24,776 nucleotides of DNA from a virus (taxonomy: Duplodnaviria; Heunggongvirae; Uroviricota; Caudoviricetes): positions 1 to 24,776 of the IMG/VR virus record IMGVR_UViG_2778261457_000006. One strand, written 5' to 3'. The notes beneath the pieces are model-generated. The model worked only from the letters and a program-made list of their open reading frames with translations. It was not told where the DNA came from and made no database searches. Shown here piece after piece: positions 2,626-24,776 of the stretch. Made by a program: the position numbers and the translations under genes. Within the stretch, counting starts at the first letter, position 1, and the number at the start of each line of letters is the position of its first letter.

Positions 2626-2700
2626 GGGTCAGTCGTATAAAGGTCATTACGGAAGGCTGTTAACCTTCTTATCGTGGTTCGAGTCCACGCTGTCCCGCCA
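2626..2700 (+). tRNA. tRNA-like gene, predicted anticodon GTT (Asn), slightly degenerate
   Basis: Hand-folded cloverleaf: acceptor gggtcag/ctgtccc (6 of 7 pairs, one T-T), perfect anticodon stem gaagg/ccttc with loop ctGTTaa, perfect T-stem cgtgg/ccacg with T-loop ttcgagt, discriminator g and encoded CCA 2698-2700. D-stem has only 3 pairs. Confidence 0.55.
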
Positions 2701-2705
2701 AATAT

Positions 2706-2781
2706 GCTGGTTTAGCTCCAATGGTAGAGCAGTCGCCTTGTAAGCGAATGGGTAGCGGTTCAAGTCCGTTAACCAGCACCA
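2706..2781 (+). tRNA. tRNA-Thr (anticodon TGT)
   Basis: Hand-folded cloverleaf: perfect 7-bp acceptor gctggtt/aaccagc, D-stem gctc/gagc with GG in the D-loop, anticodon loop ctTGTaa (U33, A37), T-arm agcgg-ttcaagt-ccgtt, discriminator a and encoded CCA 2779-2781. Confidence 0.75.
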
Positions 2782-12315: not shown

Positions 12316-12594
12316 ATGACACACATGATCTTTCGTCATGGCGACATGAAGAAGTGGAAAGGCGTTGGCTACGACTTTGAAATCGTGAAAGCCGAAGAGC
12401 TTCAGGAATATCTGGATGCTGGCTGGTTTTCACATCCTGATGACCTTTTGAAGGATGTTGCAGAGCCAGAGCAAGAGCCAGAGCCAGAGCCAGAGCCAGA
12501 GCAAGAGCCAGAGCCAGAGCAAGAAGAAAAACAGCGTAAAAAGCCTGGTCGAAAACCTAAGGCGGCAGCAGATGAACCTGACAACGAAGGGTGA
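12316..12594 (+). CDS. small hypothetical protein (92 aa) with acidic (EP/EQ)n repeat linker and basic C-terminus
   Basis: GGAGA (12306-12310) then ATG 12316. Translation [92 protein letters not shown]. Its 3' end overlaps the gp4 start by 23 nt. Not recognised. Confidence 0.5.
12463..12522 (+). repeat. tandem hexanucleotide repeat, 10 units of GAGCCA/GAGCAA
   Basis: Directly visible 60-bp array gagcca gagcaa gagcca gagcca gagcca gagcca gagcaa gagcca gagcca gagcaa. It produces repetitive artefact ORFs in the other frames and on the opposite strand. Confidence 0.9.
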
Positions 12595-13072
12595 TTTAGT
12601 TCTTGCGGCATTACGTAAGCTCGGTGTGGCATCAAATGCCACGTTAACCGATGTCGAACCGCAGTCTATGGAAGACGGCGTCAACGACCTTGAAATGATG
12701 ATGGCTGAATGGCTTGGCGGTGATGCGTCACCAGGTATCAACGTTGGCTACATTTTCGCTGATGCAGATGTCGCTCCAGATCCGGGCGATGAGCACGGTT
12801 TATCAAATAACGCTATCAATGCCGTCATTTTCAACCTTGCCTGCCGCATTGCTCCGGATTATGCGCTGGAAGCGTCTACAAAACTTATAACCACTGCCAG
12901 ATACGGGAAAGAGCGACTCGTCAAACTGTCTGCAATGGACAGAGCAAAAGCCGCTAAATGTAAGTCCGGTTATCCAAACCGTATGCCTGTTGGTAGCGGT
13001 AATCAGTTGGCGAAGTGGAACGGTTGGAATTACTTCCAGCGAAAGGAACCTTGCGATAACGGGAGCGAATAA
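12572..13072 (+). CDS. head completion / tail accessory factor (P22 gp4-like, 166 aa)
   Basis: Translation [41 protein letters not shown]... matches recalled P22 gp4. The ORF track's start at 12455 lies in the repeat and is likely not the real start. Confidence 0.85.
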
Positions 13073-14490
13073 TGCCGATTCAGCAACTTCCGCTCATGAA
13101 AGGTGTCGGCAAAGACTTCCGAAATGCCGACTATATCGACTATCTGCCAGTGAATATGCTGGCTACACCCAAAGAAATCCTGAACAGCAGCGGATATCTT
13201 CGCTCATTCCCTGGCATTACCAAACGTTCTGATGTGAACGGTATATCGCGCGGTGTCGAGTACAACATGGCGCAGAATGCTGTTTATCGTGTGTGTGGCG
13301 GCAAGCTCTACAAAGGCGAAAGCGAAGTCGGTGATGTCGCCGGAAGTGGTCGTGTATCAATGGCGCATGGCCGGACATCACAGGCTGTAGGCGTTAATGG
13401 TCAACTGGTTGAGTATCGCTATGATGGCACGGTTAAAACCGTCTCAAACTGGCCTACAGACAGCGGATTCACACAGTACGAGTTAGGTTCGGTCCGTGAC
13501 ATTACGCGTTTACGTGGGCGTTATGCGTGGTCAAAAGACGGTACTGATTCATGGTTTATCACTGACCTTGAAGACGAATCGCACCCTGACCGCTACAGCG
13601 CACAATATCGTGCCGAGTCTCAGCCGGACGGCATCATCGGTATCGGGACATGGCGAGACTTCATCGTCTGCTTTGGTTCATCGACTATTGAATATTTCTC
13701 CCTTACTGGCGCAACCACCGTTGGTGCTGCTTTGTATGTCGCGCAGCCATCACTGATGGTGCAAAAAGGCATCGCCGGAACTTACTGCAAAACGCCATTC
13801 GCTGATTCTTATGCGTTCATCAGCAATCCGGCAACAGGTGCGCCGTCTGTATACATCATCGGTTCCGGTCAGGTATCACCAATCGCCAGCGCGAGCATTG
13901 AGAAAATTCTCCGCTCCTACACTGCTGATGAACTGGCTGATGGCGTGATGGAATCGCTGCGGTTTGATGCGCATGAGTTGCTGATTATCCATCTTCCGCG
14001 CCATGTTCTGGTGTACGACGCATCTTCAAGCGCCAATGGTCCGCAATGGTGTGTGCTGAAAACAGGCCTGTATGACGATGTGTACCGCGCTATCGACTTC
14101 ATTTACGAAGGCAACCAAATAACGTGCGGCGATAAGCTTGAATCGATAACAGGGAAACTGCAGTTCGATATCAGCAGCCAGTACGACAAGCAACAGGAAC
14201 ATCTTCTGTTTACTCCGCTGTTCAAAGCGGATAACGCCAGAGTGTTCGACCTTGAGGTTGAATCGTCAACTGGCGTTGCTCAGTATGCTGACCGCCTGTT
14301 CCTCTCTGCAACCACTGACGGCATAAATTACGGTCGTGAGCAGATGATTGAGCAGAATGAACCGTTCGTTTATGACAAACGTGTTTTGTGGAAGCGAGTC
14401 GGGCGTATCAGGAAAAATGTCGGCTTCAAATTGCGCGTTATCACGAAGTCACCTGTCACTCTGTCTGGCGCTCAGATAAGGATTGAGTAA
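13072..14490 (+). CDS. tail accessory factor (P22 gp10-like, 472 aa)
   Basis: Full-length match to recalled P22 gp10 ([46 protein letters not shown]...). Confidence 0.9.
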
Positions 14491-15338
14491 TGGCGGATTC
14501 GAATCTCAATGTGCCGGTAATCATTCAGGCTACACGGCTCGACACATCAGTCCTTCCACGCAATATCTTCTCGCAGTCGTATCTGCTTTACGTTATCGCA
14601 CAGAGCACTGATGTTGGTAACGTGGCTAACAAGGCCAACGAGGCCGGACAGGGCGCTTATGATGCACAGGTCAGGAACGATGAGCAGGATGTGATTCTCG
14701 CTGACCATGAGCAGCGAATTTCTGCTGCGGAAGCAACGCTTGTTAATCATGAGGAGCGAATCAGCCAGGCAGAATCAACTCTTCAGGAACATGAAACGCG
14801 AATCGCTCAGAATGAAAGCGATATTGCGTCGCTTGATACCAGAGTTCAGTCGCTGGAGTCGCAGGTTTCAGACCATGAATCGCGCATCGATTCTCTGGAG
14901 TATGCCACTACTCGCAAGAAGTCAGAGGTTGTTTACTCTGGCGTATCAGTAACCATCCCGACAGCGCCGACCAACCTTGTTAGCCTGCTGAAAACGCTCA
15001 CGCCGTCATCCGGCTCGTTGGCACCATTCTTCGACACCGTTAACAACAAGATGGTTGTGTTCAACGAGAACAAAACCTTGTTCTTCAAGCTGTCGATCGT
15101 CGGGACGTGGCCCAGCGGAACCGCCAACAGGTCAATGCAGCTAACCTTTTCCGGCTCTGTTCCTGACACACTGGTAAGCAGTCGCAACTCGGCGACAACG
15201 ACCGATAACATCCTGTTAGCTACGTTCTTCAGCGTGGATAAAGACGGCTTTCTTGCCACAAATGGCAGTACGTTAACCATTCAGTCGAATGGTGCGGCGT
15301 TTACTGCCACAACCATCAAGATAATCGCGGAGCAGTGA
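14490..15338 (+). CDS. tail needle (gp26 family; 282 aa, Sf6 gp9-type with C-terminal knob)
   Basis: N-terminus [31 protein letters not shown] matches the gp26 hub-insertion domain. Central repeats DHEQRIS..NHEERIS..EHETRIA..DHESRID indicate a coiled coil. Length and C-terminal beta-rich domain fit the recalled Sf6 needle (282 aa) rather than P22 gp26 (233 aa). Confidence 0.85.
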
Positions 15339-15793
15339 TGATTCAGTTCAAACCAACGCGAAACATCGACCTGATCGAAGCAGTCGGAAATCACCCTGAC
15401 ATTATCGCCGGGAGCAACAACGGTGATGGATACGACTACAAACCTGATTGCCGTTACTTTGAGGTGAACGTGCACGGGCAGTTCGGCGGCATTGTTTACT
15501 ATCAGGAGATTCAGCCGCTGACATTCGATTGCCACGCCATGTACCTGCCAGAGATTCGCGGCTTCAGCAAGGAAATTGGGCTGGCGTTCTGGCGATACAT
15601 TCTGACTAACACCACCGTTCAGTGCGTCACATCGTTCGCCGCACGCAAATTCCGCCACGGTCAGATGTACTGCGCAATGATTGGCCTTAAGCGTGTCGGA
15701 ACCATCAAGAAATACTTTAAAGGCGTGGATGACGTGACTTTTTACAGCGCCACACGCGAAGAACTAATCGACTTCCTGAATCACGGGAGATAG
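15335..15793 (+). CDS. gp14-like virion assembly/ejection-associated protein (152 aa)
   Basis: Position between the needle and gp7 matches P22 gene 14. Called mainly by synteny. Confidence 0.6.
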
Positions 15794-15795
15794 CC

Positions 15796-16488
15796 ATGTT
15801 ATATGCATTTAAGCTGGGCAGAAAACTGCGCGGCGAGGAACCTTATTGCCCTGAAAAGGGTGGGAAAGGTGGCAGTTCTGATAAAAGCGCAAAGTATGCC
15901 GCAGAAGCTCAGAAGTATGCAGCAGACCTGCAAAATCAGCAGTGGCAGACGATCATGAAAAACCTTGCTCCGTTCACGCCTCTTGCGGAGCAGTATGTTA
16001 ACCAGTTGCAGAATCTTTCCAGTTTAGAAGGTCAGGGGCAGGCACTTAATCAGTATTACAACTCTCAGCAGTATAAAGACCTTGCAGGTCAGGCGCGTTA
16101 CCAGAGTCTTGCTGCTGCGGAGGCGACGGGTGGACTTGGTTCGACAGCCACAAGCAATCAACTGGCTACGATCGCGCCGACTCTCGGTCAGTCTTGGTTA
16201 TCAAACCAGATGAGCAATTACAACAATCTGGCAAACGTTGGGCTTGGTGCTCTGCAAGGTCAGGCAAACGCCGGGCAGACGTACGCCAACAACATGAGCA
16301 GCATTGCACAGCAAAGCGCAGCTCTTGCCGCTGCTAATGCCAACAAACCATCAAGTCTTCAGACAGCAATTAGTGGCGGAACGTCTGGTGCGATTGCCGG
16401 TGCAGGTCTTGCCAGCCTTTTGGGAACATCAACGCCTTGGGGCGCTGGCATTGGTGCTGGTATCGGATTGCTTGGCTCGTTGTTTTAA
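15796..16488 (+). CDS. ejection protein (P22 gp7-like, 230 aa)
   Basis: Translation MLYAFKLGRKLRGEEPYCPEKGGKGGSSDKSAKYAAEAQKYAADLQ... matches recalled P22 gp7. Confidence 0.85.
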   Translation: MLYAFKLGRKLRGEEPYCPEKGGKGGSSDKSAKYAAEAQKYAADLQNQQWQTIMKNLAPFTPLAEQYVNQLQNLSSLEGQGQALNQYYNSQQYKDLAGQARYQSLAAAEATGGLGSTATSNQLATIAPTLGQSWLSNQMSNYNNLANVGLGALQGQANAGQTYANNMSSIAQQSAALAAANANKPSSLQTAISGGTSGAIAGAGLASLLGTSTPWGAGIGAGIGLLGSLF

Positions 16489-16497
16489 GGGGTAATC

Positions 16498-17886
16498 ATG
16501 GCTACTTGGCAAGGAACAAACGGCGGATTGTTGGCTGGTATCGGCGGCGTCAACTCAAACGCTCCGAGCGTAAATGACATCGGCAATACGCTTCAGCTTA
16601 TCAGGCAGAACAATGATATTGAGCGTTCAGGCGCTAACAATGTTGGGCTGACTGCTTTGCAAGGCCTTTCAGGTATTGCGGGGGTGTTTCAGCAGGAAAA
16701 GCAGGCTCAGCGGCAGAAAGAATTTCAGCAGGCATACGCTAATGCTTATGCGTCTGGTGATCGCGGTGCTTTGCGTCAGTTGGCTACTCAATATCCAGAC
16801 CAGATTGAATCTGTTCGCAAAGGCATGGGATTCATTGATGAAGACCAGCGCAATTCTATCGGCACCTTAGCGGCTGGCGCACGCCTTGCTGCCTCGTCTC
16901 CAGAAGCAATGCAATCATGGCTGCAAAGCAACGCCAAGGAACTGACTCGCGTCGGTGTTGACCCTAACAACGTTGCTCAGATGTATCAGCAGAATCCTTC
17001 AGGGTTTGGTGAGTTTGTTGATCACCTTGGGATGGCTGCTCTCGGTCCGATTGACTACTTCAATGTTCAGGACAAGATGGCTGGTCGTGAGATTGACCGA
17101 GGCAGGCTGGCAGAGACAATCCGCAGCAATCAGGCTGGCGAGGCGCTAACAGCACGAGGCCAGAACATCACGATGCGCGGTCAGGACTTATCTGCTTCTA
17201 CTGCGCGACGCGGGCAGGATTTGGCAATGCAGCGAGCGTCAACAAGAGGAACCGCTGGGAATGATGAGCGTACAGTTCAGTTATCAGATGGCAGAACTGT
17301 AACGGTAGGCGGGAAACTTCACGGCGCTGGGGCTAATGCGTTCTACGAAGGCATCGACAACGAGGGGAATATGGTTCGCGTTCCTGCCAGTTCAATCGCA
17401 GCGCCTGCAACATCGTCTTCATCAGCACAAAACTATGCCATGAAGAAGGATATCGACGCGATCGCAAATGCAGACGCTTCTGCTCTCGATTTCATGACAG
17501 GAATGACAGGCGGTGCAGGTAATCCAGCAATTGGTGCTGATGTTCGCAGCCGATTAACAGGAAAAGAGCAGCGCCAGTTATATAACTCAGCACAACGTAT
17601 TCAGGGCAGAATGCAGAATCAGGGTGTGGCGGCAGCAAGGGACATGGGTGCCAGTGGTATTAACACCGTTGCAGAAGCGAAGATGTATTTTCAGGGGATG
17701 CCGCAGGTTGACTATTCAAGCCCGGAGGCTATGCAGCAGTCGATTCGTGAGATTCAGGAATACACCAACAATTACAACCAACAATATAACGTTAATGTTG
17801 GTAAATCTCAGCGGCAGCAATCTCAACCTGCACAGGTATCACAGCCAGCAGCCAGCAGTAACTTTTCTTCACTATGGGGTGATTAA
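16498..17886 (+). CDS. ejection protein (P22 gp20-like, 462 aa)
   Basis: Size, Gly/Ala/Gln-rich composition and synteny match P22 gp20. Confidence 0.8.
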
Positions 17887-19883
17887 TGGCTAAAGCATGG
17901 AAAGATGTTATCGCCTCTCCACAGTATCAGGCGTTAGCACCAGAACAAAAAGCGCAGGCTCAGGAGCAATACTTCAATGAAGTCGTTGCCCCGCAAGCCG
18001 GAGAAAATGCAGAGCAGGCTAAGCAAGCTTTCTATGCTGCCTATCCATTGCCATCTGTGCAGCCAGTGGAGACACAGCAACCAGTAGCACAGCAACAACC
18101 ACAGCAAAGTGGATTTATGTCTGATCTTGGTGAAGCAGTAAAAGAGACTGGTCGCGGACTGGTGCAGGCTGGCGTGAACGTGGCAAACATACCTGCATCA
18201 GTTGCCGATGCTGTAACAAGCGCTGCGGCTTGGGCTGGCGGTAAACTCGGTATTGGCGATGGTACATATCAACCAGCACCACGAGTAACAACGCAGGGAT
18301 TAGAGCAGGACTTTGGCCTTCAGCAAGGCGCGCTGACTCCACAAACGACAGAGGGAAGGGTATTTGCTGAAGCATTGCCTTACCTCACTCCTGCTGGCGT
18401 TGAGAGAGCGTCAGCACAGGCACCAACACTTGCTGGTCGAATTGCTCAGGGGGCAACTCGCCTTCTCGCTGAAAACACAGTTGGATCACTTGCTGCAAAT
18501 AGTGAGAAAGATGATGCGGAAGCACTCGCCACCGATTTAGGCGTTGGTGTGCTGGCTGGCGGTGCTATTAACGCTGCCGGACGTGGATTAGGTGCTGCTT
18601 ATCGTGGCGTTCGTGGTGCTATTGCGCCAGAAGCGCAGCAGGCTATCAGATTTGCAGAGCGTGAAGGAGTTCCTCTGCACACCACAGACCTGTTACAACC
18701 CACTTCCCGCGTCGGGAAAATGGCGCAGACGACAGCGGAAAATATCCCCCTGGCTGGCACAAGCGGAATGAGAGCAACGCAACAGGAAGCGAGAAGCCAG
18801 TTGGTGCAGAGATTTGCTGATAAATTCGGTGAGTATGATCCAGCTGTTGTTATTGACAGCCTTAAAGCGAAAACATCAGGAATTCGTCGTGCTGCAGGTA
18901 ATCGACTGGAGCAGGTTCAGAATGCTATGGCAGGAGTAAACATTCAGCCTGCACGAGCAATTCAGCAGATTGATACAGAAATATCTAACCTGCAGAAGCT
19001 TGGTAAGGTCGCTGATAACGAGACTATTTCAAAACTTCAGTCCTATCGTGATGAGCTTGTTCGCAATGCTGGTCCTGATGGTCCGGTCAATCTGGATTTG
19101 AAGCAATTAAGCGATCTGCGCAGCCAGTTCAGAATGGACGTGAAGGGTGAGCGACCAGTGTTACCAAACCGTTCCGATGCTGCCATTCAGCGCGTTTACA
19201 AGGCAATGACCGACGATATCAATGGTGCCATTGGTCAGAATCTTGGCAACGATACTCTCCGTAAATATCAGCAGGCCAATGCCGTCTACGCTGACGAAGC
19301 AGCAAAACTAAAGAATACCAGGCTGAAGAATGTTCTCATGAAAGGCGATCTGACGCCGGAAGTTGTCAACAACATGCTATTCAGCAAGAACAAATCGGAA
19401 ATTAAGACTCTGTATAACTCAGTTGGTCGTGTTGGCAGGGCGCAAATGCGCAATGGCATCATTGGAAAGGCGATGGAGAAATCAGGTGGTTCCCCTGACC
19501 AGTTCCTTCGGCAGCTTAACATCCTGCAAAACCAGACTGGCATCACATTTAAAGGTCAGGAAGCCGCTTATCTGAAAGGATTGAAAAACTACCTGCAATC
19601 CACGCAGCAGGCTGCAAAAGCGGCAGTAACAACACCAACAGGGCAGCAAACCATCCCGTTCATTATCGGGTATGGGACGGCAATGAACCCGGCGACAACT
19701 GGCGCAGCGGTAAGCTACGGACTTCTTACTCGCGCCTATGAGAGCGAGCTATTCAGAAATGCAATGCTCCGAATGGCAAACACCCCACGCGGATCAACAG
19801 CCTTTGAGAAAGCAATGCAGCAGGCACAAAAGGCAATTAACGCTCTGACGCAGGGGGCTAAGTCTGATGCGTTGTCAGAATAG
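17886..19883 (+). CDS. ejection protein (P22 gp16-like, 665 aa)
   Basis: Size and synteny (last gene of the ejection-protein block) match P22 gp16. Confidence 0.8.
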   Translation: MAKAWKDVIASPQYQALAPEQKAQAQEQYFNEVVAPQAGENAEQAKQAFYAAYPLPSVQPVETQQPVAQQQPQQSGFMSDLGEAVKETGRGLVQAGVNVANIPASVADAVTSAAAWAGGKLGIGDGTYQPAPRVTTQGLEQDFGLQQGALTPQTTEGRVFAEALPYLTPAGVERASAQAPTLAGRIAQGATRLLAENTVGSLAANSEKDDAEALATDLGVGVLAGGAINAAGRGLGAAYRGVRGAIAPEAQQAIRFAEREGVPLHTTDLLQPTSRVGKMAQTTAENIPLAGTSGMRATQQEARSQLVQRFADKFGEYDPAVVIDSLKAKTSGIRRAAGNRLEQVQNAMAGVNIQPARAIQQIDTEISNLQKLGKVADNETISKLQSYRDELVRNAGPDGPVNLDLKQLSDLRSQFRMDVKGERPVLPNRSDAAIQRVYKAMTDDINGAIGQNLGNDTLRKYQQANAVYADEAAKLKNTRLKNVLMKGDLTPEVVNNMLFSKNKSEIKTLYNSVGRVGRAQMRNGIIGKAMEKSGGSPDQFLRQLNILQNQTGITFKGQEAAYLKGLKNYLQSTQQAAKAAVTTPTGQQTIPFIIGYGTAMNPATTGAAVSYGLLTRAYESELFRNAMLRMANTPRGSTAFEKAMQQAQKAINALTQGAKSDALSE

Positions 19884-19972: not shown

Positions 19973-20233
19973 TTAGTTGCTGTCTTTTTTATATAGCTCC
20001 TTGAGCGTATCAAAGACAATTTTCTTAACCATATCAGATTGTTGTTCTGCCATACGCTCTGCATCGTCAATGTAAACTGATGCAGAGCTTTGTTTATCCA
20101 ATGATTCTTCAATCGCTGCAATTATCTCTGAGTTCAGCGACCTGTTATTCATCTTCGCGCGCTGCTTAATTTTCGCGTGGAGTTCATGCGGAAGTCTCAA
20201 GTGAAACTGCGCCTCGTCGTATTTGCTGTACAT
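19973..20233 (-). CDS. mnt: Mnt-like ribbon-helix-helix repressor (about 86 aa; upstream alternative start at 20266)
   Basis: Minus-strand translation MYSKYDEAQFHLRLPHELHAKIKQRAKMNNRSLNSEIIAAIEESLDK...YIDDAERMAEQQSDMVKKIVFDTLKELYKKDSN aligns with recalled P22 Mnt along its length. GAGG lies 8 nt upstream of the internal ATG. Confidence 0.8.
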   Translation of the reverse strand: MYSKYDEAQFHLRLPHELHAKIKQRAKMNNRSLNSEIIAAIEESLDKQSSASVYIDDAERMAEQQSDMVKKIVFDTLKELYKKDSN

Positions 20234-20306
20234 CCTTGATGCCTCACCAGTTGGGTGGAATGGCATCGTAACCTACTGGATAAATACTCAATAGTACCAT
20301 TTCGGT

Positions 20307-20329
20307 ATGCAATCACATCATGGTTGCAT
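20307..20329. promoter_or_regulatory. 23-bp palindrome ATGCAATCACATCATGGTTGCAT in the mnt-tailspike divergent intergenic region (candidate operator)
   Basis: 6-bp perfect inverted arms atgcaa/ttgcat separated by 11 bp, between the two divergent start codons. Function is inferred. Confidence 0.35.
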
Positions 20330-20354
20330 CATATCATTCGTCTGGAGCAATGAA

Positions 20355-22286
20355 ATGTCAGATATCACCGCAAATGTTGTAGTGAGCATGCCTTCGCAAC
20401 TCTTCACTATGGCGCGTTCTTTTAAAGCCGTAGCCAATGGCAAAATTTATATCGGTAAAATTGACACTGACCCGGTAAACCCTGAAAACCAGATTCAGGT
20501 TTATGTGGAGAACGAAGACGGCTCTCACGTTCCTGTTTCGCAACCAATAATCATTAACGCTGCTGGTTATCCGGTATATAACGGACAGATTGCCAAGTTC
20601 GTAACTGTGCAAGGCCATTCTATGGCTGTTTATGATGCGTACGGGGCGCAGCAGTTCTATTTTCCGAATGTTCTGAAGTACGACCCGGATCAGTTCACAA
20701 ATCGCCTAGCCGATGTTTATGGCTCAACGCTGGTTGGAGGAGCGTATTTTTCTGATATAAGAACTTATTCTGAGAAATCAAAAAAAATATATTGCCTTGG
20801 GAGGTCAGGGTTATTTGATGGCGGAGAAGGATGGTTTTATTTAGATGATACAGACACTACGAGCGATGATGATGATGGAATCATTTTGGTTGGGGCTTCC
20901 GGTAGGAGATGGAAGAGGGTAATAGAAGGGAGCTACAAACCCGAATGGTGGGGAGCAGATCCTACTGACACCGTTGATTGCCATGCAGCATTTACAAAAT
21001 GCATCGCTGCTGCACGGGGTAAAGAAATTAGTTTAAGTGGTAAATATAAATTTTCAAAACCACTTGTTATTGACTTTAATGATGAGGCGAGCCTGAAAAT
21101 AACAGGTACTGGCTCTTATAATCATATGGCAAATGCCAAAACTAAAAACCTTTGCTATTTAAATTTTGATTCTATACCGCAAAATTCGCGTGCCATTACT
21201 TTTAAGGGAGTAAGAGGTCTGGTTTTAGAAGATTTTCATGTATCGCATCGTGCCGGTGGTAGTTCGCTTTCAGTCGCTTTATGGCTTACTAAAATAGATG
21301 ATTTTAGATTAACTGGTCTTACTGTGGATTCCGATACTGGACCTGGGGGGCAAGGTATCCGCTTTGGGGAATCTAATGGCACAGACTGTGCTTTCATGGG
21401 GAATATCTCTCATTGCAAAGTGTGGATGCATGGAGGTGGCCCTTCTTTCTGTGTGCAACCGGCATGTACTTCATTGCTGTTTGAAAACTGTTATGGCATT
21501 GGTGGTTATTTCTATTTCCAAAATTGTATCTATTGCTCTATGAACACTTGTGCAAGTGAAGGAAGTGAAGTTTCTGGGTATGGCTATATACTGCATTCTG
21601 TTGAAGGGTTTACTGCTATCAACTGCGCAGGGGAAGGAAATAAGTTAGGTGTTTTTTATCTATCTACAGGGTGTTCTCAAGTAGTTCTTACCTCCCCATA
21701 TGGCGCAGGGAATGGAAATCTTACTGGAGACATAGATGGAGCCCTGGTTAAGTTGGATGGCACATCCGGTGCCAATAGTAATATTTTGATAGAAAACCCA
21801 GTATCACATTCGCAGGTAGGTAATGTGACATCTGATATTAATGCTGTAGGCGTCAATGGGCACACAGAAATAACTAATGTGTATTCAGAAAAACTAACAA
21901 AAGGAATAGCTGGTTCTGATTCCTGGATTCAGAACTATTTAACAATTACAGGAGATTTGAGTTGTCGCGACTTTATACCTGGGATCCCTGGTTGGACAGC
22001 TCCAGGAGGTGCGTTAATTGAAGGAAAATTTACAAGAAATAATAAGATTGTATCTTTTTCGGTTAAAGTGTCGCCAACAAACTATCTTTCATGTGAACAT
22101 GGTCTATCAAAAACGACACTTCCGTCATTTGGAGGGCTGTTATATGGAGGTGCAGCACAGGTTTCGAATACTGCTGGTACGAACTATGGATCTGCGATGA
22201 TCGATACTAACGGTGTGGTTTGGATGCCAAACATAACCAGTACGTCAAATGCAATACTCATAAGTGGGTCTGTGTTAACAAACTAA
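20355..22286 (+). CDS. tailspike protein: P22-type N-terminal head-binding domain fused to a different beta-helix-like receptor-binding/depolymerase domain (643 aa)
   Basis: TGGAG 7 nt before ATG 20355. The first ~115 aa ([13 protein letters not shown]...[63 protein letters not shown]) match recalled P22 gp9. The remainder is unrelated to P22, AT-rich and Cys-rich. Confidence 0.88.
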
Positions 22287-22377: not shown

Positions 22378-23532
22378 TCATGCTTTTCCGTCAATGAAAT
22401 CAGCCCACCACTGCATCATTTCTCTGCGCTTATCCAGATACTGAGCATGGTTGTAAATCCCGCGCACAGATCCACCGTTGGCATGCGCCAGTTGAACCTC
22501 AATCGCGTCAGCAGGCCATTCGTGCTCGTTCATAATCGTGCTGAATTCATGCCTGAATCCGTGTCCGCTTTCCAGACCCTCATATCCGATTTGTTTGATC
22601 ACAAGTAGTACAGCGTTCTCGCAAATTGGCTTCTTCTTATCGTTGCGCCCGGCAAAAACATACTCTGATACTGGTTTAGTGATTGAGCTTAGCGTAGTGA
22701 GAAGTTCAACCACCTGGTCTGACATCGGGACCACATGAATTTTGCGTCCCTTCATCACACTGGCGTCGATGGTGATAATCCTGTTTTCAAAATCGACGTT
22801 CTTCCATTGCATGGAGCGAAGCTCTTTCGTTCTTAGGGCTGTGTAGCGTAAAACTTTGGTCGCAATGAGCGATACGATACTTCCTGAAAATGTTGCCAGT
22901 GCTTTGTTGAATGCAGGGATCTGGTCTGCTGGAAGAAACGGGAAGTTCTTCTTGCGGTATCCTTTCATGGCGTCTGCAAGGTCAGGTGCCGGGTTATATT
23001 TAGCCCTTCCGGTGACAATAGCGTAACGGAAAACCTCGCCGCATCTTCTGCGGGCTTTGTTGGCTCGTTCCATTGCACCGCGATCTTCAAATCTGCGGAT
23101 TACTTCCAGCAGTTGCATCGGCTCAATATCCTGAATCTCAAGACCGCCGATGATGGGTAAAATGTCGTCATCAAACATTTTGGCAAGCTCAGTTGCATAG
23201 CCTACTGACCATACTTGCTTCTTGTGCTCGTACCATTCCTTGTAAATTGCACTAAAGGAATTGTTGTTAGACGAAGCCTTTTTCGCTTTTACCGGATCGA
23301 TGCCAACCGAGATGTCTTTCCTCGCGGTCCATGCTTTATCTCTTGCCTCCTGCAAAGTCATTAGCGGATATTTTCCTACGGTCAGGATTTTCTCCTTACC
23401 GTCAATCTTGTAGCGAAGCTGCCATACCTTTTTCCCTGACACAGGGACATAAAGGTACAGGCCATTACCATCGAGTAGGCGGTATGGTTTTTCTTTCGGC
23501 TTTGCTGCTTCAATCTGCTTAACGGTGAGCAT
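22378..23532 (-). CDS. int: tyrosine integrase, P4 family (about 384 aa from ATG 23532; ORF extends to GTG 23568)
   Basis: N-terminus MLTVKQIEAAKPKEKPYRLLDGNGLYLYVPVSGKKVWQLRYKIDGKEK is the P4-type arm-binding domain. C-terminal ..GHGFRHEF.. and ..LAHANGGSVRGIYNHAQY.. carry the catalytic His/Arg/Tyr region. Resembles my recollection of E. coli K-12 IntS next to argW. Confidence 0.9.
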   Translation of the reverse strand: MLTVKQIEAAKPKEKPYRLLDGNGLYLYVPVSGKKVWQLRYKIDGKEKILTVGKYPLMTLQEARDKAWTARKDISVGIDPVKAKKASSNNNSFSAIYKEWYEHKKQVWSVGYATELAKMFDDDILPIIGGLEIQDIEPMQLLEVIRRFEDRGAMERANKARRRCGEVFRYAIVTGRAKYNPAPDLADAMKGYRKKNFPFLPADQIPAFNKALATFSGSIVSLIATKVLRYTALRTKELRSMQWKNVDFENRIITIDASVMKGRKIHVVPMSDQVVELLTTLSSITKPVSEYVFAGRNDKKKPICENAVLLVIKQIGYEGLESGHGFRHEFSTIMNEHEWPADAIEVQLAHANGGSVRGIYNHAQYLDKRREMMQWWADFIDGKA

Positions 23533-23693
23533 GGGTAAAAATCCGGTGGGTAAAATTATTTTATCCACTTTTTACCCGTCATGGAGTGCGGCTGTCAACG
23601 ATCTGACGCGAACCATTACGAACTGTGAATCTGCGGAAGGCTTGATATTCAGGGAATTTTGCGGACTGGTACGGATGGGAGCGAACTGATAAA

Positions 23694-23768
23694 TGGTGTC
23701 CCCTGCAGGAATCGAACCTGCAATTAGCCCTTAGGAGGGGCTCGTTATATCCATTTAACTAAGAGGAC
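23694..23768 (-). tRNA. argW: tRNA-Arg (anticodon CCT), host argW
   Basis: Reverse complement GTCCTCTTAGTTAAATGGATATAACGAGCCCCTCCTAAGGGCTAATTGCAGGTTCGATTCCTGCAGGGGACACCA folds as a canonical cloverleaf with anticodon loop CTCCTAA. Matches recalled E. coli argW. Confidence 0.9.
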
Positions 23769-23843
23769 AATGCGGCATGAGTATACCCGCTAATGGACTG
23801 CGGGGTAAGTACGCTGCCGCTCGATTGCTTAAACCCTCGCCAT

Positions 23844-24776
23844 TTATGCTGGGTTTTTATCATTTTTCTTAATGTTTTCCGCACGTTCTGCTTTTTGGCG
23901 TGCTTCTGCTTTACGCTTGTTGCTCATGTCGTTACGAATCTGTGCATGACTCATTAACGCGAAGATAAAGGTGCCGCCGCAGATGTTCCCCGCTAAAGTA
24001 GGTAGTGCGAAGGGCCAGATGAAATCGCTCCAGTGCAGCGTGCCGTTAAACACCAGATAGAGGATTTCAACAGAACCGACAACGATGTGGGTGGTGTCAC
24101 CCAGTGCAATAAGCCAGGTCATCAATATAATCACCACAATCTTTGCCGCACCCGCAGCAGGAAACATCCAAACCATAGTGGCGATCAGCCAGCCGGAAAT
24201 GATCGCGTTGGCAAACATCTCGCTGGGGGTGTTCTTCATCACATCCATGCCGATTTTGACAAATGCATCGCGAGTTTCTTCATTGAAGATAGGCATATAT
24301 TCAAATGCCCATGCAGCAATACCTGTCCCGAGAATATTACCCAGCAGCACGACGCCCCATAATCGCATAAGTAAGCCGACGTTGCTCATTGTCGGTTTTT
24401 GCATGACGGGTAGTACCGCAGTCACGGTGTTTTCGGTAAATAATTGCTGGCGGGCCATAATGACGATAATAAAACCAAAGGTATAACCGAGATTCTCCAG
24501 TAAGAAGCTGCCTGGCACTCCTTCCAGTTCGACATGAAATATCCCTTTTGCCAGTAGCGAAGCGCCCATCGACAGACCCGCCGCAATGGCTGACCACAGT
24601 AGCGCCATTGCGTCGCGTTCCAGCTCTTTTTCACCATCCTGGCGGATATGCTCATGAATTGCCATCGCCCGGGAGGGGAGTCGATCTTCATCTATTTCTA
24701 TTTTTTTGCCGCGCTCTTTTTCTTCGCTCTCAACTTCAATTTCGTCGCTGTGTTGATCAATTTTGTCGTTGTCCAT
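23844..24776 (-). CDS. yfdC: inner membrane protein YfdC (formate/nitrite transporter family, 310 aa), host gene
   Basis: Minus-strand ORF ending exactly at the window edge; polytopic membrane protein. Matches recalled E. coli YfdC, which neighbours argW in K-12. Confidence 0.85.
   Translation of the reverse strand: MDNDKIDQHSDEIEVESEEKERGKKIEIDEDRLPSRAMAIHEHIRQDGEKELERDAMALLWSAIAAGLSMGASLLAKGIFHVELEGVPGSFLLENLGYTFGFIIVIMARQQLFTENTVTAVLPVMQKPTMSNVGLLMRLWGVVLLGNILGTGIAAWAFEYMPIFNEETRDAFVKIGMDVMKNTPSEMFANAIISGWLIATMVWMFPAAGAAKIVVIILMTWLIALGDTTHIVVGSVEILYLVFNGTLHWSDFIWPFALPTLAGNICGGTFIFALMSHAQIRNDMSNKRKAEARQKAERAENIKKNDKNPA

Follow-up and report, generated by a model that had tools for sequence, protein, structure and literature searches.

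A predicted tail needle gene of the Sf6 knob type in the late region of a P22-like Escherichia coli prophage

Introduction

Among the described tail needles are those of phages Sf6 (gp9) and P22 (gp26), both of which have 11 heptads (PMC3741392). The N-terminal helical hairpins of the three chains together make a plug of quasi-sixfold symmetry, which sits in the hexameric tail hub and holds the DNA inside the head (PMC9728967). As summarised from cryo-ET in PMC9400499, the needle meets the cell surface and departs once ejection begins. Changes in the tip of the needle alter the kinetics of potassium efflux, i.e., of DNA delivery (PMC3741392).

The Sf6 needle ends in a knob. The study that characterized it in detail recognizes a knob by similarity to residues 140–282 of Sf6 gp9, and those known from P22-like phages diverge by no more than 4.9% (PMC3741392). 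The residues that contact L-glutamate are, in Sf6 numbering, E146, K200, S248, D250, L255, and K277, and a distal phosphate is bound by the triad S231-R232-N233 (PMC3741392). In that survey of 2013, the knob type was found, among P22-like phages, only in those of Escherichia and Shigella (PMC3741392).

I consider here the tail needle gene of a P22-like prophage, which an earlier note, made from the sequence alone, had described as encoding a long needle of the Sf6 type with a repetitive coiled coil and an extra C-terminal domain that might influence host range.

Results

The Prophage and Its Late Genes

The window, by which I mean the whole 24,776-nucleotide stretch of DNA that was analysed (from IMG/VR record IMGVR_UViG_2778261457_000006), holds part of a prophage, the late half of a P22-like element within an E. 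coli chromosome. Its genes run in the order lysis, terminase, portal, scaffold, coat, gene 4, gene 10, needle, gene 14, three ejection proteins, a minus-strand Arc-like gene, tailspike, and integrase, and the segment 10-needle-14-7-20-16-tailspike is ordered as in Sf6 and P22. The needle gene lies within this P22-like late operon between two genes recognized by Pfam. Upstream is the gene for the tail hub or head closure protein (13072..14490, plus strand; homologous to P22 gene 10 and Sf6 gene 8; PF11134, 996 bits), whose DNA is 93–98% identical to that of Sf6, IME10, and HK620. Downstream is a homologue of gene 14 (DUF2824; 15338..15793, plus strand; PF11039, E 3e-53), which, following the annotation of Sf6, I take to start with the ATG at 15338. 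There follow three ejection-protein genes (15796..19883, plus strand), homologues of P22 genes 7, 20, and 16 and collinear with the annotation of Sf6 and P22, and then the tailspike gene (20355..22286, plus strand), with a head-binding domain of the P22/Sf6 type (PF09008, E 2e-67) and an unusual receptor-binding domain.

The prophage end (22378..24776, minus strand) is marked by a tyrosine integrase gene (22378..23568, minus strand) and, beyond it, a gene for tRNA-Arg(CCU) at 23694..23768. Similarity to phage records stops at about 23708, within the tRNA gene, and past it a host gene of the formate/nitrite transporter family runs off the window. This end resembles argW-yfdC, the site into which elements of the Sf6-like and CPS-53 types insert. 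The nearest phage to the window overall is IME10 (72% covered, at 95.4% identity), and none of the complete RefSeq E. coli genomes covers more than 86% of the window.

Some other features of the window may be recorded here. Phage-borne genes for tRNA-Asn(GUU) and tRNA-Thr(UGU), 5 nt apart, lie upstream of the lysis genes (2626..2781, plus strand). Between coat and gene 4, a small gene (12316..12594, starting with ATG) contains a hexanucleotide array, (CAGAGC)n, of 10.7 copies (12461..12524), which encodes an acidic Glu-Pro/Glu-Gln run. The copy number of the array varies, as there are eight perfect copies in IME10 and no copies in either P22 or Sf6. In an overlapping frame the array gives the ORF of gene 4 a misleading N-terminal extension (SQSKSQ...); the Pfam match of that ORF begins at residue 41. 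Finally, a minus-strand ORF of 97 amino acids (19973..20266), between the last ejection-protein gene and the tailspike gene, looks like a ribbon-helix-helix protein (Arc/Mnt-like), and its position matches the immI region of P22 and that of an "Arc family DNA-binding protein" in E. coli 90-1.

The Needle Gene

The needle gene, homologous to Sf6 gene 9 and P22 gene 26, is an intact ORF (14490..15338, plus strand) that begins with ATG and consists of 282 codons and a stop. Its start codon overlaps the stop codon of the upstream gene in the sequence TAATG (GAGTAATGG), and its TGA shares bases with the start codon of the next gene in GTGATG (CAGTGATGATT). Such overlaps at both ends are the close coupling usual in the late operons of phages.

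The DNA of the gene is, over its full length, 97.6% identical to that of phage N7 and 96.8% identical to Sf6 gene 9; the identity to phages Kapi1 and Louie is 96.5%. At the level of protein, 274 of the 282 residues are the same as in Sf6 gp9, leaving eight substitutions. The gene is almost certainly an allele of Sf6 gp9, and its product the trimeric tail needle of an E. coli prophage that is P22-like (Lederbergvirus-type) and integrated next to a tRNA-Arg(CCU) gene; I infer its function from homology, and no result obtained here speaks against the identification. The ORF is exactly the one that the earlier note had put forward, and the protein is, as it had said, a 282-residue needle of the Sf6 type; its plug is P22-like, and a heptad coiled coil leads from this to the C-terminal knob.

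Minus-strand ORFs in the same region (14547..14750, 14933..15280, and 15281..15658) were judged spurious, as they do not appear in annotated relatives.

Plug and Coiled-Coil Shaft

The plug, or tail-hub-binding domain, which is conserved in all P22-like needles, occupies approximately residues 1–68 (14490..14693, plus strand). In a search of the PDB, the first 137 to 144 residues matched structures of P22 gp26 (2POH, 3C9I, 4LIN, and 4ZKP; E about 1e-42), and residues 3–64 matched 8EAP_B, the fragment of gp26 seen within the virion in the P22 tail complex (E 1e-26).

Approximately residues 69–139 (14694..14906, plus strand) make up a coiled-coil shaft, as judged from repeats, shuffled sequences, and structure prediction. 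It is built on a 14-residue (two-heptad) repeat with four motifs of the form [D/N/E]HExRI. These repeats, read in the earlier note as DHEQRIS..NHEERIS..EHETRIA..DHESRID, are indeed present: DHEQRI begins at residue 72, NHEERI at 86, EHETRI at 100, and DHESRI at 128, with all four copies in one heptad register at spacings of 14, 14, and 28 residues. When residues 65–140 are compared with themselves at an offset of 14, there are 25 identities, a number attained by none of 5000 shuffles of the residues. The offset of 28 likewise exceeds all shuffles, the score at an offset of 7 was attained by 17 of the 5000, and offsets other than multiples of 7 gave 1 to 6 matches. AlphaFold2, run on the single sequence, predicts a continuous helix from residue 42 to 144, with pLDDT values of 82–94 across residues 61–130. 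The matches to gp26, the significant periodicity of 7 and 14 residues, and the predicted helix all point to a plug followed by a heptad shaft.

The DNA beneath the motifs forms a family of 23-nt direct repeats, with four copies at 14697, 14739, 14781, and 14865 (spacings of 42, 42, and 84 nt). Tandem Repeats Finder, applied to the needle gene, reported just a trivial 9-nt array and not the 42-nt periodicity, because the copies, 65–78% identical to one another, are too diverged. Both the divergence of the copies and their absence from the output of the program argue that the array reflects a two-heptad coiled-coil periodicity that is old and has diverged, and not a recent duplication of DNA. 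Nor is the motif specific to needles of the Sf6 type, since DHExRI is found also in P22 gp26, at the identical positions 72 and 86.

The C-Terminal Knob

The beta-rich C-terminal domain proposed in the earlier note is real. The protein matches the Pfam family PF16532 (Phage_tail_NK, "Sf6-type phage tail needle knob") over residues 108–282 and over all of the profile (positions 1–175 of 175), with 384 bits as against a gathering cutoff of 27 bits; other Pfam hits to the protein are sub-threshold coiled-coil noise. In the search of the PDB, residues 130–282 matched the crystal structures of the Sf6 gp9 knob (3RWN, E 4.6e-90) and of the knob from prophage HS1 (4K6B, E 1.3e-89). The homologues of known structure show the knob itself, residues 140–282 (14907..15335, plus strand), as a TNF-like jellyroll trimer. 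Of its 143 residues, two are different in Sf6 (1.4%) and one is different in HS1, so that it is plainly similar to the part of Sf6 gp9 by which knobs are recognized (PMC3741392). All nine of the ligand residues named above, six for glutamate and three for phosphate, are kept at the same positions.

The predicted jellyroll fold follows from the identity of about 99% to 3RWN and 4K6B. I took the fold from the crystal structures because the single-sequence AlphaFold2 model is unreliable for the knob: without an alignment, the program gives a C-terminus rich in beta strands, with pLDDT mostly below 50 across residues 141–261.

An Exchangeable Tip

Sliding-window identity was calculated across the needle region. 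The flanks (gene 10, gene 14, and gene 7) are 93–99% identical to Sf6, IME10, and HK620 alike, whereas the stretch 14700–15335 has such identity (93–99%) to Sf6 only and lies at about 20–50%, i.e., noise, when compared to IME10, HK620, and P22. BLAST alignments to the last three stop at 14692–14710 (codons 68–74) and start again at 15336. As the flanks are about equally close to Sf6, IME10, and HK620 while the interior is of the Sf6 type alone, codons ~69–282 behave as an exchangeable cassette. The 5' boundary of the cassette falls at about codon 69, within the highly conserved stretch ...NDEQDV(I/E)LADH..., and the 3' boundary is the gene boundary. The engineered P22/Sf6 fusion of Leavitt et al. 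was placed at codon 69, in the same conserved stretch (PMC3741392). The boundary found here is thus one more natural case of the exchange of needle tips already described for P22-like phages.

At the end of gene 10 and in the plug, IME10 is only 65–79% identical to the window (14430..14700 against 15450..15711 of IME10), as compared to 85–99% for HK620 and Sf6. The needle region of IME10 therefore has a different history, one that starts upstream of the tip cassette.

The cassette (14690–15338) is present in 821 of 5426 complete E. coli genomes, and 764 of 825 matching E. coli records are 95–99% identical to it at the level of DNA. E. coli 90-1 has a knob sequence that is 100% identical, to which PGAP has given the name "tail needle knob protein". 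Outside these genomes, Klebsiella phage phiKp_30 (LC768498.2, 13781..14627; recorded host Klebsiella pneumoniae) carries a needle gene of the Sf6 type that is 97.2% identical.

The Tailspike

The tailspike ORF extends over 20307..22286 (plus strand), with a likely true start at the ATG at 20355. Residues 17–129 of the ORF are a standard P22/Sf6 head-binding domain. The receptor-binding part had no megablast match among 50,697 phage records, and with tblastn the sole full-length match to it came from Shigella phage Sd1 (53% identity), in what is annotated as a "tail fiber protein". Strong matches in the PDB were confined to the head-binding domain, with no solved structure found beyond about residue 240. 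The tailspike is a rare receptor-binding module on a common scaffold.

Discussion

A Needle Much like That of Sf6

By its sequence, the needle has in approximately residues 1–68 the conserved helical hairpins that plug the channel of the hexameric hub specified by the gene immediately before it; residues 69 to about 139 form a heptad coiled-coil shaft of the same length as that of P22, and residues 140–282 form the knob, which in the crystals of Sf6 and HS1 is a TNF-like jellyroll trimer with three L-glutamates and a distal phosphate. By extension from work on P22 and Sf6, the needle would retain the packaged DNA, project past the tailspikes so as to be the first to touch the outer membrane, and leave at the onset of ejection; the ejection proteins would follow it out of the virion. 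The tip domain would, on the same grounds, tune the rate at which DNA is delivered and not choose the host.

The gene is an ordinary one that has been thoroughly characterized: solved structures lie one to two residues away, and there is a dedicated functional study. It can be labelled with confidence "tail needle protein, Sf6 type (knob)", and beyond its correct annotation it matters little.

Other Readings of the Gene and Its Knob

The same C-terminal domain might be thought a diverged tip of the P22 type, the beta-helix and helical tip of gp26, and not a knob. There is practically no chance of this. Nothing past the common N-terminal 137 residues favors it: aligned at full length, the needle and P22 gp26 match just over those residues, ungapped and at 58% identity. 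A BLASTP comparison of residues 141–282 to the P22 tip (residues 141–233 of gp26) gave as its best match 29 residues with 15.8 bits and an E value of 0.13, which is at the level of chance; the DNA from 14720 to 15320 is at noise in its identity to P22, HK620, and IME10; and the domain is about 99% identical to two solved knobs. For these reasons I reject a P22-type tip. The knob is therefore absent from P22 gp26, as the earlier note had said, and its residues 141–282 fail to align with the tip of that protein. It is not, as that note had also said, an extra domain: it stands in place of the P22 tip, a knob of 143 residues instead of a tip of 93 (residues 141–233). The swap explains the whole difference of 49 residues in length between the two needles, the ungapped alignment through residue 137 meaning that the shaft in the window is as long as that of P22. 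A different doubt concerns whether the knob-bearing needle still does anything, as the gene might be intact yet functionless, in a decaying prophage that can no longer be induced; many E. coli have small P22-like remnants. More than 100 E. coli genomes have a remnant of a few genes that includes a needle gene of the Sf6 type (PMC3741392), the copy of the knob in E. coli 90-1 that matches exactly belongs to a prophage broken up by IS elements, and, of the 821 E. coli genomes with a match, 232 align to less than 80% of the module. In the window, however, nothing interrupts the late region, which is collinear with Sf6, P22, and IME10 from the lysis genes to the integrase and tRNA-Arg, and IS elements and frameshifts were not seen in the genes examined. 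I consider decay unlikely.

Even in a functional needle of the Sf6 type, the knob might do more than tune delivery. The earlier note had suggested that it influences host range together with the tailspike, in which case it would recognize some component of the envelope, as a secondary receptor, and contribute to the choice of strain. The needle does project beyond the tailspikes and is the first to arrive at the cell surface (PMC3741392, and, so far as its cryo-ET summary goes, PMC9400499); the knob type is confined, among P22-like phages, to those of Escherichia and Shigella, with none in 48 P22-like phages of Salmonella (PMC3741392); and the authors of that survey allow for a specific function of the knob for Sf6 on Shigella (PMC3741392). 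Experiment gives a different answer. P22 carrying codons 69–282 of Sf6 or the HS1 knob has normal titres and infectivity on Salmonella, mutants in the glutamate site are normal, a needle tipped with foldon still gives functional virions (infectivity 0.13 relative to the parent), and a role in host specificity was judged unlikely by the authors (all PMC3741392). All 34 isolates of Sf6 with expanded host range were mutated in the tailspike only (PMC9400499). In addition, the knob hardly varies among hundreds of prophages from many strains while the tailspike does vary, the opposite of what a determinant of specificity would do, and the needle gene that is 97.2% identical comes from a phage recorded on Klebsiella. 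That the knob acts as a host-range determinant is very improbable, and any role of it in host range is unlikely. Prediction of the host range of this prophage should make use of the tailspike, not the needle.

There is perhaps room for something subtler. A near-invariant knob that holds glutamate could have a role in fitness at the Escherichia/Shigella envelope that plaque assays miss, for example in the kinetics of ejection through contact with the envelope. I regard this as quite unlikely, and the sequence adds no pointer to it beyond what the existing literature already discusses. Were it true, the pairing in this prophage of the knob with a rare receptor-binding domain on the tailspike would offer a natural chimera in which to study the role of the knob at the envelope.

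Comparison with Known Needles and Knobs

Sf6 gp9 (NP_958185.1; 3RWN) has the same length, the same three-part architecture, and the same gene neighbors as the needle in the window. The eight substitutions that separate the two, from Sf6 to the window, are conservative: G39S, R92S, D100E, S113A, T131S, A135S, T176S, and S270A. Only T176S and S270A lie in the knob, and the alanine at 270 is the residue found in HS1; the residues by which Sf6 binds glutamate and phosphate are all identical. The resemblance does not extend to the whole phage. The receptor-binding domain of the tailspike differs from that of Sf6, and the genes upstream of gene 10 have no blastn match to Sf6; they match IME10 and, more weakly, P22.

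The knob of HS1 (4K6B) has threonine where the window has S176, and A270 is common to both. The HS1 needle differs in its shaft, which has 16 heptads, while the needle in the window has 11, as do Sf6 and P22. The earlier note had called the needle long. The 282 residues are confirmed, but this is not the longest needle, as those of the HS1 type have 317 residues and 16 heptads (PMC3741392). Needle genes of the HS1 type, 954 nt in length, are found in phages Gally, JEP4, and 720R6, and match the gene in the window in two pieces.

P22 gp26 (2POH, 3C9I) shares the position in the operon and, at 58% identity over residues 1–137, the plug and the shaft. The role of the needle as a plug that retains DNA and a needle that contacts the membrane is presumably the same in the two. 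The tip domain of gp26 (93 residues) is unrelated to the knob of the window (143 residues). The needles of HK620 and IME10 are short, 233 residues, with a tip of the P22 type. HK620, named in the earlier note as a comparator, is thus of the short type, similar to the window over nucleotides 1–224 of the gene only.

Beyond the P22-like group, knobs of the PF16532 type are found in Vi01-like phages of the Ackermannviridae (Cba120, PhaxI), in RB43-like T4-type phages, and in phages of Aeromonas, Vibrio, and Edwardsiella, whose genomes range from about 43 to 350 kb. The glutamate-contacting residues are conserved in knob homologues outside the P22-like group, in which the N-terminal extension may be short or as long as 143 residues (PMC3741392). 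In the phage collection searched here, 291 records matched the knob domain, 11 with at least 95% identity and 280 below 80%. Among the matches listed, those with at least 95% identity are P22-like phages, and those below 80% are 36–57% identical over about 90–100% of residues 140–282. A few close matches in P22-like phages and many distant ones in others fit the view in the literature that P22-like phages acquired the knob in recent times, by horizontal transfer (PMC3741392).
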